DNA from: an uncultured delta proteobacterium
GTDB lineage: Bacteria > Desulfobacterota > Syntrophia > Syntrophales > Smithellaceae
Assembly: GCA_963851005.1 (NCBI GenBank)
Contig: CAWKNI010000007.1
Location: 1,566,904 to 1,630,903, forward strand
Reading direction: 5' to 3'
DNA: 64,000 bases
Positions 2,581 to 12,777 of this stretch are shown here, piece after piece. Positions within the stretch are counted from its first letter, which is position 1. Each line of letters starts with the position of its first letter. Under the pieces are notes generated by a model. The model saw only the letters and a program-made list of their open reading frames with translations, ran no database searches and had not been told where the DNA came from. A program made the translations under genes and the position numbers.

Positions 2581-4422
2581 ATGAGAATCATTTATATGGC
2601 AGATATTCACGGTGCCTTTGACCGTGTTAAAACTTTGTTGTCCGAAACAGTGGCGGATGTCTATATCATTGCTGGTGATATTATTGATATCCCCTTTTAC
2701 AACATGAGTACCGCAATCAATTACCATGAGCTTCAATCCTATTTTCACGGCTTGCGTGTCAGAATGCAAAAAGAAAGTATGGTCATCGAAGATTTTGTGG
2801 ATGAGTTGCTTGATACACCTAAAAATTCTGAGGAGATTGAAGAAAAAGGTACAAAATATCAGCGCTACACAATTCGTGCTCGCCGGGTATTGCAACAAAA
2901 ATACAAGGTTTTGGAAAATTACCTGGCAATGAAACAGAAATCTCAGATATTTGCCCTGCCCGGCAATTATGATATGGATTTGAAATATACGTCACTCCAC
3001 GAGCGGGATCTCCACCTGCATTGGCACGACATGCGCGGCTTAAGGGTTGCCGGCTACGGCGGAGCCAACATCTGGACTCCGGGGATTCCCGAACGTTACG
3101 TAGTACCTTATGGAGGAAGCGCAGATGCTGAAAGCGGCCGCAACGAAATGTATAATTTCTTCAAAGCCGTAAAGCCCGATATAATTGTAAGCCATCAACC
3201 GGCTCATGGTATTCATGACCGGGTAAACCAATTCGGAACATCCGGCTCGCCGGCTCTACGCCATTACTGCGATAACAATCACGTTCTTCTGTGTCTTACG
3301 GGTCATGTTCATATGGATTGGGGTTTTCAGGTCAGCGAGGAAACAATATACCTCAATCCATCTAATTTCGGAGAAGTAACAACCCTGACCGGCGGTGTTG
3401 CGGAAGGCGGCTTCTTCTACACTATCGAAATGGAAGGCAGAAATATTTCTAAAATCATCTTCAAGAAGCTTGTTGAAGACCGCATCCATGACATTGCCGA
3501 TTACTATCCTCAAAACGACGGACATTGGCAAGAAACAATTGTTGATGCCGAACGTTACAAAGCCCGCAAGCAGGGCGAAAACTTCGATTCAAAAACAGAA
3601 AAATACTCTCATATTCCTGAAGTACGACTCTACAATGATATTAAACAGTTTTACCGCATGTTCCAAACGGAAGAAACAGAAGAACGTCTAAACAAGCTCG
3701 AAGAGGTTGTTCATCTAATAGAAGAAGGTATTCACAATGTTCGTCCGACCGCATACGCGGTCGGACGAACGGAGCCGCGTCTGAAAGACGCTTGCTCAAC
3801 CGCTTGCGGCGGCGGAACAAGCGACTTGAACAGACTGGCCTGTGACCAGCAGTTCAGCCGCGGCTCCGATATAGCAATGGATATAATGGGTTCCACAAAT
3901 ATGGGACTTTGTGAGAACACTTCCGATATTGACTTTGTGATCTATGTTCGGTGTGATCCTGATTTTGAAGGAGACATCAATACCTGCAATCAATATAAAA
4001 ATGCCGAAAAGATTATCGAGAAAATCTTAAGCCCCCGGTATGCTTTTCAGATTTTAGACACTATTGATCTCAATATTGTGGAGAAAGCCATCAGGGGAAA
4101 AAATTATGAAAATGAAATGATGATGCGCTTTGTTGCTTACCGCTCCATCTGCCGACCTATAAACTATCGCTTCATCGCTCCGGTGGAGGATCTGCTAAAT
4201 CAGGACAGAGAATTCAGGACAGAGATTGAGGGAAGCATTCGTTCCTATTTCCAGATATTTATCAATACGTCGCAACATACCCGTTCATTCAAGAAATATG
4301 AAAGTCGGATCAAAGACATCGGCATCAAGATCCCAGAAACTGTACGGCTGAAGATCAAAGAGTACTTTGAACAGAATACTGATAGAATTGAATGCGCAGT
4401 GAAACCGGAAAAGATTAAGTAA
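2581..4422 (+). CDS. fusion protein: N-terminal calcineurin-like metallophosphoesterase plus C-terminal Pol-beta-type nucleotidyltransferase
   Basis: 613-aa ORF. Metallophosphoesterase motifs are ADIHG, AGDIID, GNYD, SHQPAHG and GHVHMD. The nucleotidyltransferase motif is IMGSTNMGLCENTSDIDFVIYV (a GS...DxD pattern). Confidence 0.7.
   Translation: MRIIYMADIHGAFDRVKTLLSETVADVYIIAGDIIDIPFYNMSTAINYHELQSYFHGLRVRMQKESMVIEDFVDELLDTPKNSEEIEEKGTKYQRYTIRARRVLQQKYKVLENYLAMKQKSQIFALPGNYDMDLKYTSLHERDLHLHWHDMRGLRVAGYGGANIWTPGIPERYVVPYGGSADAESGRNEMYNFFKAVKPDIIVSHQPAHGIHDRVNQFGTSGSPALRHYCDNNHVLLCLTGHVHMDWGFQVSEETIYLNPSNFGEVTTLTGGVAEGGFFYTIEMEGRNISKIIFKKLVEDRIHDIADYYPQNDGHWQETIVDAERYKARKQGENFDSKTEKYSHIPEVRLYNDIKQFYRMFQTEETEERLNKLEEVVHLIEEGIHNVRPTAYAVGRTEPRLKDACSTACGGGTSDLNRLACDQQFSRGSDIAMDIMGSTNMGLCENTSDIDFVIYVRCDPDFEGDINTCNQYKNAEKIIEKILSPRYAFQILDTIDLNIVEKAIRGKNYENEMMMRFVAYRSICRPINYRFIAPVEDLLNQDREFRTEIEGSIRSYFQIFINTSQHTRSFKKYESRIKDIGIKIPETVRLKIKEYFEQNTDRIECAVKPEKIK
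3739..3867. repeat. GC-rich, highly palindromic 129-nt segment lying in frame inside the 2581..4422 ORF
   Basis: A perfect 14-bp stem, GTTCGTCCGACCGC-atac-GCGGTCGGACGAAC, spans 3739-3770. A second hairpin runs from GGAGCCGCG-t-CTGAA (from 3771) to TTCAG-c-CGCGGCTCC (to 3867). 129 nt is 43 codons. By eye the segment is much more GC-rich than its flanks. Confidence 0.6.
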
Positions 4423-5909: not shown

Positions 5910-7133
5910 ATGACACATACAGCGAAAAAAAACACTGGTCAGGACACTGATGAGACCTCTCAATGGCGTTTGACACTTTTTGTCATGTTCATTGCCCAAT
6001 GGATTTCTATTGTGGGCTTTTCCTTCGTTGTACCCTTCATCCCCTTCTATATCCGTGAGATAGGTGTGACAAATGAGAAGTTGGTGCCAATCTGGGCCGG
6101 GATTCTGATGACAGCATCAAGTCTAACCATGACTATTTTCGCGCCATTCTGGGGCTGGCTTTCAGACCGTTATGGTCGAAAACTCATGGTTGAACGGGCC
6201 ATGTTTGCCGGCGCAATCATTACTATGGCCATGGGAATCATCGGCAATGTTTATCAACTCCTCATTCTGCTTCTGCTTGAAGGCGCCTTCACCGGAACCT
6301 TTTCTGCCTCCATTTCCCTTGTTTCATCTGTTGTGCCTGGCACGAAACTGGGGTTTGGGTTGGGTCTCATGCAGGTCGCCGTTTTTTGGGGAATATCTTT
6401 AGGCCCTTGGATTGGCGGCATGATTGCCGATATCGTCGGCTATCGTTTGACCTTTATCGCAGGGGGGGCTATTGTGCTCTTTGGTGGTATACTTGTTATG
6501 ATTGGGGCAAAGGAAAAATTTGTTCGCCCTTCTACTATATCATTGAAACGAAGTGGAAGCATGAAGGCACTCTTTGCCCTGCCGGGTTTTATCTCCTTGA
6601 TGATCGTCTTTCTCCTATTCAACTTTTCGATAAATATCCCCAGCCCAATTATATCGCTGTTTATCGAAGCAGTCGGAAACTTAAAGACACGAGTTGCCTC
6701 CACGACAGGGTTGCTACTTGCTGTTACCGGCGTCACAGCCTCAATTTCTGCTGCCGCCACCGGTTATTTGAGCGACCGTAGAGGTCACAAACAAATCATC
6801 ATTGTCAACCTGTTCATCACAAGTATCCTGATGGTTACCCATGCCTTGGCTCGAAACATAGACCAATTGCTCGCTATTCGGATACTTTCTGGATTTGCGG
6901 TTGGAGGAATTCTTCCCACCATGAATGCGCTCGTGGGAAAATTAACTCCAAAGGAAAACTTCGGAAAGGCCTACGGGTTGATGACTTCAATGACTTCTCT
7001 CGGTACAACGCTGGGACCATTAGCTGGTGGTATCATGGCATCCTATATGGGACTTCGATGGCCCTTTGTCGCCGTTAGCTTCCTCTTGAGTCTAGTCGTG
7101 ATCCCCTTAATCTTAAGCTTGAAGCCTCGCTAG
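5910..7133 (+). CDS. MFS transporter (multidrug-efflux-like, about 12 TM segments)
   Basis: Hydrophobic repeat architecture with the MFS motif GWLSDRYGRKLM. I moved the start to the ATG at 5910 (MTHTAKKN...), because the track's N-terminal extension overlaps the repeat array. Confidence 0.85.
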   Translation: MTHTAKKNTGQDTDETSQWRLTLFVMFIAQWISIVGFSFVVPFIPFYIREIGVTNEKLVPIWAGILMTASSLTMTIFAPFWGWLSDRYGRKLMVERAMFAGAIITMAMGIIGNVYQLLILLLLEGAFTGTFSASISLVSSVVPGTKLGFGLGLMQVAVFWGISLGPWIGGMIADIVGYRLTFIAGGAIVLFGGILVMIGAKEKFVRPSTISLKRSGSMKALFALPGFISLMIVFLLFNFSINIPSPIISLFIEAVGNLKTRVASTTGLLLAVTGVTASISAAATGYLSDRRGHKQIIIVNLFITSILMVTHALARNIDQLLAIRILSGFAVGGILPTMNALVGKLTPKENFGKAYGLMTSMTSLGTTLGPLAGGIMASYMGLRWPFVAVSFLLSLVVIPLILSLKPR

Positions 7134-7260
7134 TGAAACTCCCCGCGGCAAGCCGTGGGGCATCTTTAACAGCCAGGAGGGGGATTGCATCCCCCTTACC
7201 CCTGCACCGCATTCATCCCCGCCATTAATGGCGGGGTATTCTGCGGAAGTTTCATAAAAT
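7134..7260. repeat. cluster of G/C-stem hairpins (repeat family 2 relatives)
   Basis: GTGAAACTCCCCGCGGcaagCCGTGGGG, GGGGGATtgcATCCCCC and CCCCGCCAttaaTGGCGGGGTATTC. They resemble the units at 35788-35928 and the nested insert in element copies 4 and 5. Confidence 0.5.
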
Positions 7261-7592
7261 TTAACTGAATTAATTTCGTTTGTTTGTAGATGAAGTCAAT
7301 AAATTAAGAAAGAAGAGAGCTGCAATGCTTTATATCGTAAGCTGTAATTAGCTTATTTTATAACTGCTCTTTAGCAGTCTACATTACCTCTCTATACCCA
7401 AAAGATTGTTTGGTTTAATCACCTCCAGTGAAATTGTGTAACTTTCACTAAAATCGTCCGGGCACTGCAGCACTCTTCAGCTTTAATGTACTCCTGCTGG
7501 TTACTACTGTCAAGGGGTAAACTCAACACGAATTTCTTCCTGAAAGTCTCATTTCCAATATTTTTAATTTTATGCTAAGTTACAAACAGTAA

Positions 7593-7907
7593 TTGTTAAG
7601 ATGTGGCAGGTTTCTAATTCAGCAAGTGGAGTACGCTATGGAAGAAACTATGGTGTTAGTTGTTTGTCTATTGGTGTTAGTGCTAGGTCTTCAAATCCAA
7701 ATCCGTAACTTCAATCAAAAATTTAAGGAACTGTTACAGAACCCTCATAATCATCTCATTTGCAGTACTTGCGGTAACATTGTTAATCTTGAGATTGATG
7801 TCGACAAGTCTTTAATACCGACTGAAAAACTGCAAGGTTTTGAAATCGGCGGAATATATATCGACTTCTATGGCGTGTGTCGCAATTGTAAAAACAAGGA
7901 AAGTTAG
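7593..7907 (+). pseudogene. Fur-family metalloregulator remnant (C-terminal metal-binding/dimerisation half only)
   Basis: NPHNHLICSTCGNIVNLEID...GFEIGGIYIDFYGVCRNCKNK matches the Fur-family HHHxxCxxCG...CxxC layout. No winged-helix N-terminal domain is readable in any frame upstream. The ORF starts at a TTG. Confidence 0.45.
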
Positions 7908-10972: not shown

Positions 10973-11095
10973 GTACCGTTTCGATTTCAAAGGATAACGC
11001 GGCGGCAAGAAGGAGGCGCCGGAGGCGTATTACTAATACGTTGAGGACGCCGACGACGATGCCAACAAAGTTAGCCAAAGAAAGCGAAATGGTAC
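10973..11095. mobile_element. MITE-like element, copy 2 (diverged ends), between the two mcm subunit genes
   Basis: GTACCGTTTCGATTTCAAAG...GGCGTATTACTAATACGTTGAGGACGCCGACGACGATGCCAACAAAG...GAAAGCGAAATGGTAC. It fills the 156-nt gap between the stop at 11095 and the start at 10938. Confidence 0.7.
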
Positions 11096-12777
11096 TAATA
11101 TAGTCCCGGGTCTCGATACTCCCCATAAACTTCCCGATAGACATCACATATTTCCTGCAGGGTAGCCAGATTCTTTACCGCTTCGATGCAGTGCGGCATC
11201 ACGTTTTCGCCTTTTTTACAGGCATTTTTTATATTTTCCAGCGACTTCATGGTGGTGCGGTTATCGCGTCTGCGGCGCACGTCCTTAAGCCTTTTAATTT
11301 GCTCTTCGCCCACCTTTTCATCAATATCAACAAGCGGAATCGGATGTTTGGCGTCGGTTTCATATTTGTTCACTCCAACCATGATCTTGTCGCCCGCATC
11401 CAACTGTCTTTGAAACCTGTAAGCAGCTTCGGATATTTCCATCTGCGGGAACCCTTTTTCAATAGCGGTAATCATACCGCCCATCTCATCAATCTTATGA
11501 ATATATTCCCATGCTTTTTCTTCCATTTCGTTGGTGAGAGACTCGATAAAGTACGAACCGGCCAGCGGATCAATGGTATTGGCCACTCCCGTTTCTTCGG
11601 CTAATATTTGCTGCGTGCGCAGAGCGATTTCTACGGCATGCTCGGAAGGCAGGCAGAGAACCTCATCCAGCGAATTGGTGTGCAGCGATTGTGTGCCGCC
11701 AAGCACTGCCGCCAGGGCTTCCATTGTCGTGCGGATAACATTGTTGTATGGCTGTTGCGCTGTCAGTGAACATCCGGCCGTCTGGGTGTGGAAACGAAGC
11801 CACCACGAGCGGGGATTTTTCGCCCGGAAACGATCTTTCATAATTTTAGCCCACATGCGGCGCGCGGCCCTCAGTTTGCAAATTTCTTCAAAAAAATCGA
11901 TGTGAGAATTAAAAAAGAAAGACAAGCGAGGGGCAAAGTCATCAACGTTTAATTTCTTGCGGCGGACGACATCTTCAACGTATTCGATGCCGTCGCGGAT
12001 AGTGAAAGCCAGCTCCTGTACAGCCGTGGAACCTGCCTCACGAATGTGATAACCACTGATGCTGATTGTATTCCAATTGGGAACAAATTTTGTGCCGAAC
12101 TCAACCGTGTCGCTGATAAGCTTTACGGAAGGTTCCGGCGGGCACATAAAGGTTTTTTGGGCAATAAATTCTTTGAGCATATCATTTTGGATGGTGCCGC
12201 CGATTTTGGTAAGCGGCACGCCTTTGGCTTCAGCCGCCGCGCAATACATCGCCCATAACACGGTCGCCGGAGGATTAATTGTCATGGAAGTTGTAACCTC
12301 ATCCATAGGAATATCTTTCATGAGAGCCAGAAAATCTTCCAGTGTGTCTATGGCCACGCCGCATTTTCCCACTTCGCCCAGCGCTTTAGGTGAATCGCTG
12401 TCGTAGCCCATGAGTGTCGGAAAATCGAAAGCTGTACTTAAGCCCGTTTGCCCCTGACGCAGCAGCAAGTGCCAACGCTGGTTGGTATCCTGCGCGCTGC
12501 CCATGCCCGAGAACATACGGAATGTCCAGTAACGTCCCCGATAACCGGTCACCTGATTGCCGCGCAAATAAGGAAATTCGCCGGGAACACTGATATCTTT
12601 GGCGAAGTCTATGTCTTTAATATCTTCCGGAGTATAAAGCCTTTTGATTTCCAGATCGGAAATGGTGGAAAAACGATTTTTCTGATCGGGATTATTTTTT
12701 AGTGATTTTTTTACTTCATTCACCCATTTTTGGGTGAGTTTTAATGAAGCTTCCCGCATTTCTTTGGAGAAATACAC
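11095..12777 (-). CDS. methylmalonyl-CoA mutase, large catalytic (N-terminal TIM-barrel) subunit
   Basis: 560 aa, with FPYLRGNQVTGYRGRYWTFRMFSGMGSAQDTNQRW, LSTAFDFPTLMGYDSD and HTQTAGCSLTAQQPYNNV. Confidence 0.92.
   Translation of the reverse strand: MYFSKEMREASLKLTQKWVNEVKKSLKNNPDQKNRFSTISDLEIKRLYTPEDIKDIDFAKDISVPGEFPYLRGNQVTGYRGRYWTFRMFSGMGSAQDTNQRWHLLLRQGQTGLSTAFDFPTLMGYDSDSPKALGEVGKCGVAIDTLEDFLALMKDIPMDEVTTSMTINPPATVLWAMYCAAAEAKGVPLTKIGGTIQNDMLKEFIAQKTFMCPPEPSVKLISDTVEFGTKFVPNWNTISISGYHIREAGSTAVQELAFTIRDGIEYVEDVVRRKKLNVDDFAPRLSFFFNSHIDFFEEICKLRAARRMWAKIMKDRFRAKNPRSWWLRFHTQTAGCSLTAQQPYNNVIRTTMEALAAVLGGTQSLHTNSLDEVLCLPSEHAVEIALRTQQILAEETGVANTIDPLAGSYFIESLTNEMEEKAWEYIHKIDEMGGMITAIEKGFPQMEISEAAYRFQRQLDAGDKIMVGVNKYETDAKHPIPLVDIDEKVGEEQIKRLKDVRRRRDNRTTMKSLENIKNACKKGENVMPHCIEAVKNLATLQEICDVYREVYGEYRDPGLY

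Follow-up and report, generated by a model that had tools for sequence, protein, structure and literature searches.

How did a strongly palindromic, GC-rich stretch of 129 nt come to lie, in frame, in the middle of a conserved gene? The question is raised by the window, the whole stretch of 64,000 nt that was analysed (contig CAWKNI010000007.1 of assembly GCA_963851005.1, a Smithella genome), in which an open reading frame (ORF) on the + strand at 2581..4422 encodes a metallophosphoesterase-nucleotidyltransferase fusion protein of 613 residues. The segment at window positions 3739..3867, inside this gene, was delimited in the initial annotation, which likened it to a Rickettsia palindromic element (RPE). 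We believe, with a probability of roughly 80%, that it is a gene-less integron cassette, little more than a long attC recombination site, which was inserted through a genomic (attG) site.

The segment is what it had been described to be, GC-rich and doubly palindromic, with exactly 43 codons and no stop in the frame of the host gene. Its GC content is 64%, compared with 42% for the remaining gene. Its predicted folding is much more stable than chance would give: the energy of -79 kcal/mol on the + strand corresponds to z = -10, and that of -87 kcal/mol on the - strand to z = -9, against shuffled sequences. Both opposite-strand frames had been reported as open, whereas only one of the three is stop-free over the whole segment. 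Both structural parts were confirmed. The first (3739..3770, +) is a hairpin with a perfect 14-bp stem, GTTCGTCCGACCGC-ATAC-GCGGTCGGACGAAC, one of three such hairpins in the window. The second, a domain of 97 nt (3771..3867, +), is closed by GGAGCCGCG (3771-3779) and CGCGGCTCC (3859-3867) together with CTGAA/TTCAG, has an inner stem, and carries a conserved T-C mismatch in its closing stem. Within it, the stem-loops P2 (about 3786-3827, +) and P3 (3835-3849, +) form with the closing stem a predicted three-way junction, in the position of the terminal structure of an attC site. This 97-nt domain is taken as the attC core on the basis of its fold, the consensus fold and the pair counts. In the first hairpin, G|TTCGTC (the remainder of R', the bar marking the crossover) and CGACCGC pair with GCGGTCG and the R'' box across the ATAC loop. 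The R'' box, GACGAAC (3764..3770, +), has retained the conserved AAC triplet, and GTTCGTC at the 5' end of the cassette is exactly complementary to it. The hairpin is the 5' end of the cassette paired with its own R'', and it stands where an ordinary cassette has its ORF. From R'' to R' the site measures 111 nt. Read by the integron convention, the inserted cassette is TTCGTCC...GGCTCCG at 3740-3868 (+), and the one-base ambiguity is the G shared at the crossover.

Comparison with homologues showed that the segment is an insertion. Almost all of 120 close homologues have 555-578 residues and lack it, and when 20 homologues were aligned, all except two metagenomic relatives had a clean gap in place of the 43 residues, flanked by ...EEGIHD and DIAMDVMGS; the suspicion that they would prove to be an indel was thus borne out against nearly all orthologues. 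In whole-genome searches, the matches in every more distant genome were split into query residues 1-386 and 430-613, and the insert was absent from all 50%-identity cluster representatives and from >100 more distant orthologues. DNA alignment with four genomes of the genus gave the empty site, ...ATTCACGATG|ATATAGCA... (CACGATG|ATATAG around the junction, ...CACGATGATATAG... in its wider form), whereas the sequence with the insert is ...CACGAT G|TTCGTCC...GGCTCC G|ATATAGCA. The inserted length is exactly 129 nt with an ambiguity of one base (G), and the comparison of empty and filled sites showed no target-site duplication. The left junction joins the target to the cassette at G|TT, and the right junction joins the cassette to the target at G|AT; the target triplet 5'-G|AT-3' (3868..3870, +) has its G in common with the cassette end. 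As far as can be judged from the sequences, these junctions fit the chemistry of an integron integrase, and we infer from them that the attC site of a cassette probably recombined with a genomic 5'-G|AT-3'.

The host protein has a calcineurin-like metallophosphoesterase domain at residues 1-245 and a Pol-beta-type nucleotidyltransferase domain at about 426-495 (Pfam PF00149, PF01909 and PF22600). The insert ends eight residues before the G-S of the nucleotidyltransferase motif (G437-S438; 3889..3894, +). In an AlphaFold2 model built from a 37-sequence alignment, the mean predicted local distance difference test (pLDDT) score of the whole protein was 87 and the predicted template modelling score was 0.86, whereas residues 385-428 had a pLDDT of <50 and formed a coil without secondary structure between a helix (364-385) and the strand (431-436) that leads into G437-S438. 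A solved nucleotidyltransferase, 9xbd_E, matched by profile, has a loop five residues longer at the point of insertion. Because of this longer loop and the position of the coil in the model, the insert site is considered a surface loop tolerant of changes in length. In the model, the insert itself is a disordered loop that connects helix 1 of the nucleotidyltransferase fold to strand 1, in agreement with the added loop suggested in the initial annotation. The host gene is under purifying selection across the insert-bearing species: against four of them, the ratio of non-synonymous to synonymous substitution rates (omega) was 0.08-0.11 at synonymous divergences (dS) of 0.22-0.44. The insert-bearing gene is therefore functional, and the loop is presumably translated and harmless.

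The initial annotation had counted the absence of other copies or relatives from the genome against a mobile origin, and neither BLAST nor a covariance model of the family found a second copy of the 129-nt element in the genome of the window. A search confined to this genome was too narrow, because relatives of the element lie in sister genomes. The sample of the genus comprised 36 Smithella genomes, which are not independent samples (below, G000 is the genome of the window, other G numbers are genomes of the genus, L numbers are loci and P numbers are proteins). Relatives of the element were present at non-orthologous places in 13 of the 36, at 1-3 copies per genome, and the DNA of the copy in the gene is 78-94% identical to these intergenic integron units. 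All copies examined outside the gene were intergenic and co-oriented with their flanking genes. Just upstream of one copy lies a tyrosine recombinase with the Phage_int_SAM_4 and Phage_integrase architecture, which scored 465 bits against the integron integrase model TIGR02249 (cut-off 265 bits). Such integrases, with 400-480 bits, were found in 17 of the 36 genomes, whereas the genome of the window has none above the cut-off, its best match being 107 bits.

The surroundings of the copies are those of integrons. In G042 and G005, the element starts 181 nt past the stop codon of the integrase, on the same strand, directly after a conserved region that ends ...GTGTTTACA...CCATATAAACAAT G|TTCG; in G046, the conserved region has the end ...TATAAATATT G|TTCGCT, and what comes next is an ORF cassette. 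By its sequence and its place between the integrase and the first cassette, this region looks like an attI site. In G046 and G050, the element lies inside arrays, 2.4-3.2 kb downstream of the integrase. Further attC sites of 58-68 nt were recovered downstream in the arrays by a scan for AAC...GTT with a folding-energy filter, which is an ad hoc procedure and not a validated detector. Where checked, the R'' of an array attC was complementary to the preceding R' at 6-7 of 7 bases; for example, the 3' junction of the element, G|TTATGC, is followed by a small ORF and then by an attC beginning GCATAAC. The short attC sites in element-bearing arrays show a bulge. In G050, a cassette whose ORF encodes a SnoaL domain has as its attC the 97-nt core without the first hairpin, in which R'' is ACCGAAC and R' is GTTCGCT.

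A pattern scan of metagenomes and species-representative genomes added about 30 further copies, essentially all of Smithella/Syntrophaceae type. Metagenomes and metagenome-assembled genomes (MAGs) hold arrays with 2-3 copies about 1.1-1.3 kb apart (L118, L122, L137 and L128). Most array copies come after the ...G|TTCGTC belonging to a short attC and run into G|TTRRRY, with 3' junctions such as G|TTAGAG, G|TTATGC and G|TTGGGC. The order in L118 is an attI-like core, a unit, an ORF cassette whose short attC ends ...TTTTTC G|TTCGTC, a second unit, one or more ORF cassettes with short attC sites, and a third unit. Altogether, about 20 of the approximately 30 placed copies adjoin an attI-like site or sit in attC arrays, with G|TT boundaries. 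These contexts show the unit of 127-129 nt to be a discrete cassette with a G|TT at either boundary. No relationship links the genes downstream of the copies, which encode a sensor kinase, methyltransferases, a PIN protein, an amidase and unknowns, and for this reason a riboswitch or other cis-regulator was dropped as an explanation.

Pairing has been retained where the sequence has changed. Among 17 sequence variants, the first hairpin keeps 12-14 bp by compensatory changes, and R' and R'' co-vary in such a way that they still pair (GTTCGTCC/GGACGAAC, GTTCGCCC/GGGCGAAC and GTTCAGCC/GGCTGAAC). In the consensus fold of the core, 96% of the pair cells are standard pairs. P3 has been replaced wholesale between two subfamilies with its pairing retained, which amounts to about one evolutionary event and is modest evidence, and the effective sequence number of the family is near 1.

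An empty site was sought for two further copies. The copy at G046:C5 and G043:C105 is probably a second off-array insertion, with its right junction at a GAT of the orthologous site that is empty. The comparison is confined to this junction, because the left flank has been rearranged and contains an abundant repeat of unrelated sequence. For the copy at G019:C106, the orthologous empty locus was not recovered, and its flank is another repeat. This repeat, of about 58 nt, lies at L051:1367-1424, next to the copy, and belongs to a family scattered in several genomes of the genus; in G000 it occurs at C8:220942-221000, C7:775707-775764, C7:1536816-1536874 and elsewhere.

Integrases of the Smithella integrons are co-directional with their cassettes, the 'reverse' layout that is known from Treponema and few others (PMC6557892). 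In G046, the integrase gene (G046:C4:42378-43322; L082:259-1326) is broken by an in-frame TAA while the cassette array is intact, and it is possibly a recent pseudogene. In a related MAG, Deltaproteobacteria bacterium RBG_16_44_11, lexA (L064:5503-6126, +) lies directly upstream of an attI-like region and an array at about 6390-7640, in the place held by the integrase in other genomes.

Based on these observations, we propose that the insertion arose as follows. The cassette is composed, in order, of the R' remainder (TTCGTCC), a 4-nt loop, R'' (…GAAC), L'', the terminal structure with its three-way junction, L' and a final G. In the ancestor of a Smithella subclade, an integron integrase would have recombined the folded attC of such a free cassette with a double-stranded genomic 5'-G|AT-3' inside the fusion gene, that is, by the attG or secondary-site route. 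The copy, being 3 x 43 nt long and free of stops in the frame in which it landed, would have left the gene in frame within the loop between helix 1 and strand 1. The protein would have tolerated it, and it would later have been inherited vertically as a disordered surface loop. The present genome has lost its integron integrase, and the insert would therefore now be immobile.

The later history of the insert can be followed in the subclade. It is orthologous in G000, G046 (94% identical), G019, G015 and G048 and in the metagenomic proteins P0001 and P0009, and is thus common to at least five species. When the insert columns were left out of the alignment for the tree, all proteins with the insert fell into a single shallow clade with 97% support in the Shimodaira-Hasegawa-like approximate likelihood ratio test (SH-aLRT), in which the insert-free P0014 is nested with 85%. 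This topology is compatible with a single gain, and one precise loss, in P0014, is possible. Deletions have shortened the insert: G019 and G015 lack 36 nt, lost between two direct repeats of CCTGCGGC, and G048 lacks 48 nt. All of them are in frame; the in-frame length of the 36-nt deletion may be a coincidence of the repeat spacing, because an intergenic copy has the same deletion. Three of the five insert-bearing species have in this way lost large parts of the structure from the gene copy and retained the gene, and in the genome of the window the 14-bp hairpin is still perfect. The non-synonymous rate of the insert is about 2-3 times that of its flanks.

Several features do not sit easily with an attC cassette that has since drifted freely. 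The predicted fold has neither the bulged extrahelical bases nor the unpaired central spacer of a textbook site: R'' abuts a fully paired GGAGC/GCTCC, and the T-C mismatch is the sole conserved irregularity. R'' (GACGAAC) and R' (GTTCGTC) fit the consensus RYYYAAC/GTTRRRY at the AAC and GTT triplets only; these triplets are conserved in nearly all copies, in which GACGAAC or GGCGAAC and GTTCGTC are otherwise off the purine/pyrimidine pattern. A double-stranded circle of 129 bp is an awkward intermediate for integration. The junction nucleotides are over-conserved for a 'variable' terminal structure, which hints at an additional function. Finally, among orthologues the insert has diverged at 6-11% of its nucleotides compared with a dS of 0.22-0.44 in the flanks, so that its substitutions accumulate at about one third of the pace of synonymous sites. 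Neutral evolution alone does not account for this difference, which suggests either constraint at the nucleotide level or self-templated repair of the palindrome.

Other origins have to be weighed against a cassette insertion. The initial annotation had envisaged an in-frame mobile palindrome of the RPE kind. In this, the insertion itself, the former mobility and the 43-residue loop before the G-S motif stand, and what does not stand is the mechanism. A palindromic repeat comparable to miniature inverted-repeat transposable elements (MITEs), repetitive extragenic palindromic (REP) sequences or RPEs, moved by a transposase such as an IS200/IS605-type Y1 enzyme acting on hairpins, would explain that a strongly palindromic unit of about 129 nt without an ORF is dispersed, that the peptide insert is in frame as with RPEs and, for IS200/IS605, that the target is not duplicated. 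For an RPE or MITE, the lack of that duplication speaks the other way. There are only 1-3 copies per genome and a single one here, neither terminus (GTTCGTCC... or ...CGCGGCTCC) is an inverted copy of the other, and every informative context, including the roughly two thirds of placed copies next to attI-like or attC sites with G|TT boundaries, is that of an integron. The flanks examined hold no longer parent element, though no search was aimed at one, and elements of the IS200/IS605 or REP type were rejected since this parent and matching termini are lacking. Nor does the segment resemble the intergenic repeats of the window, as had been proposed, for the abundant repeat families of the genus, including the one at about 10986-11097, are unrelated to it in sequence. 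We therefore consider movement by a transposase very unlikely.

A functional structured RNA (a small RNA, a stability or processing element, or a ribozyme) that travels as a cassette, works at the RNA level in the transcript of the host gene and uses attC-like ends for mobility only is somewhat easier to entertain, although it too is unlikely. It would agree with the co-orientation of all examined copies with flanking genes, the near-invariant unpaired nucleotides of the three-way junction, the exchange of P3 with pairing retained, the recurrence between ORF cassettes and the evolution of the insert at a slower pace than flanking synonymous sites; gene-less cassettes elsewhere can carry promoters (PMC6557892; bioRxiv 10.1101/2023.11.21.568050). 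Yet co-orientation is expected of any attC, conservation in a family this young, with an effective sequence number near 1, may reflect recency, and most of the insert-bearing species gave up much of the structure and kept the gene. A permissive Rfam scan of 3600-4000 (E = 10) returned only three chance-level matches with E = 2.9-5.8, far under the gathering scores. These data neither demonstrate nor contradict the suggestion of the initial annotation that a structured RNA element is embedded in the mRNA. That the 43 residues are instead ancestral and were lost in most orthologues, their likeness to intergenic DNA being secondary, is effectively refuted. The nested insert-free P0014 leaves room for at least one loss or an unresolved branching order, but the segment is missing from all distant orthologues and cluster representatives, its bearers form one shallow clade, it exceeds the gene in GC content by 22 points, and its DNA matches integron units between genes.

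If the segment is a gene-less cassette, as we prefer, the recurrence of the unit in arrays permits a tentative extension, which we hold to be possible and somewhat less probable than its opposite. The unit may be a parasite of the integron integrase: as a selfish, non-autonomous 'integron MITE', this attC-only mini-cassette would multiply in arrays and escape to GWT sites across the chromosome. The positions it takes in arrays would be the first one after attI and alternate ones between ORF cassettes. If this holds, in-frame landings at GWT sites can add new loops to proteins. In a stronger version, the conserved three-way junction would also be a functional RNA or a protein-binding module that organises the expression of the array.

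Like attC sites and gene cassettes, the unit is an imperfect palindrome whose outer triplets are AAC and GTT, measures 111 nt from R'' to R', which is within the known attC range, and occupies the 3' ends of cassettes in arrays that adjoin an integron integrase and an attI-like site; its boundaries are at G|TT, and its R'' is complementary to the cassette's own 5' end. It differs in lacking the bulged extrahelical base and the unpaired central spacer, in having a conserved three-way junction as its terminal structure, and in that most copies have no ORF. Vibrio cholerae repeats, of about 120-130 nt, are attC sites of the long repeat type.

IntI1, IntI2 and IntI3 are reported to insert cassettes across the E. 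coli genome at 5'-GWT-3', with cleavage after the G; the genomic insertion sites were named attG, and SALIN is the name for an isolated attC site (Loot et al., bioRxiv 10.1101/2022.09.11.507474). The insert in the window is similar in that it is a single attC in an integrase-less genome, off the array and within a gene, at a G|AT that fits 5'-GWT-3'. Those insertions were obtained in the laboratory in E. coli with class 1-3 integrases and plasmids that mimic cassettes, and they disrupted genes. In contrast, the Smithella insert is natural and ancient, lies in an anaerobic syntroph, measures 129 bp, and has its frame preserved and presumably read through. The gene-less cassettes described from Vibrio are about 450-650 bp long, judged by the size of the control fragments in the study concerned, and often bear promoters (PMC6557892; bioRxiv 10.1101/2023.11.21.568050). 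The Smithella unit resembles them in being bounded by recombination sites, in having no protein-coding capacity and in lying between ORF cassettes; it differs in its size of 127-129 bp, in a 4-nt loop that stands instead of cargo and in its recurrence at alternate array positions.

Like RPEs, the element is a palindromic unit of about 100-150 nt found in frame in a conserved gene, with a tolerated peptide and decay by in-frame deletion. RPEs are high-copy elements whose mobilising enzyme is unknown, whereas the Smithella element is low-copy and has no sequence in common with them, and the system that mobilises it can be identified as the integron integrase.

To our knowledge, cassette integration outside integrons has been demonstrated only recently and in the laboratory, and natural cases that can be dated are few and disrupt genes or deliver cargo. 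Our literature searches found no description of an attC-only cassette of about 129 bp recurring in arrays, no natural, in-frame, translated and long-retained cassette insertion in a conserved gene, and nothing relevant on Smithella integrons, and each of these results is only weak evidence of novelty. The event described here would be ancient, shared by at least five species of an anaerobic syntroph of the uncultured type, and the cassette, reduced to a recombination site, left a viable protein with a 43-residue loop. It would link two fields, integron biology and the study of protein inserts that originate from mobile palindromes, and it points to an undescribed class of attC-only mini-cassettes that populate arrays. 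It also advises caution in annotation: GC-rich palindromic islands in AT-rich genes of integron-bearing lineages may be attC relics.

The genome of the window holds relics of lost integron platforms. A C-terminal remnant of an integrase, 84% identical over 31 residues, lies at G000:C7:286787-286879, and a remnant of the region between integrase and attI, 78% identical over 150 nt, lies at G000:C7:159929-160078 (L092), about 100 nt past the 3' end of a tRNA. Despite the absence of an integron integrase, the attI-like core of about 40 nt (...AATATTAACACCGATCCATATAAACAAT G|T...) is present at no fewer than four loci (L093, L094), with coordinates C7:1302065-1302109, C7:317671-317710, C7:558237-558269 and C8:109674-109701; one of these copies precedes an ORF and a candidate attC of 58 nt, picked up by the ad hoc scan, that ends GTTCGTC.

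Two other repeated sequences were observed in the same genome. The abundant repeat of about 110-125 nt, which lies on the - strand of the window at about 10986-11097 (G000:C7:1577889-1578000), is probably the 'intergenic repeat' meant in the initial annotation. Every one of the 36 genomes of the genus contains it; first-look candidates number up to a few hundred in a genome, and 217 in G000. The gene of a tyrosine recombinase of 308 residues is present in three identical copies (G000:C7:148686-149468, C8:213320-214102 and C9:182286-183068) and is likely to be part of a multi-copy mobile element.

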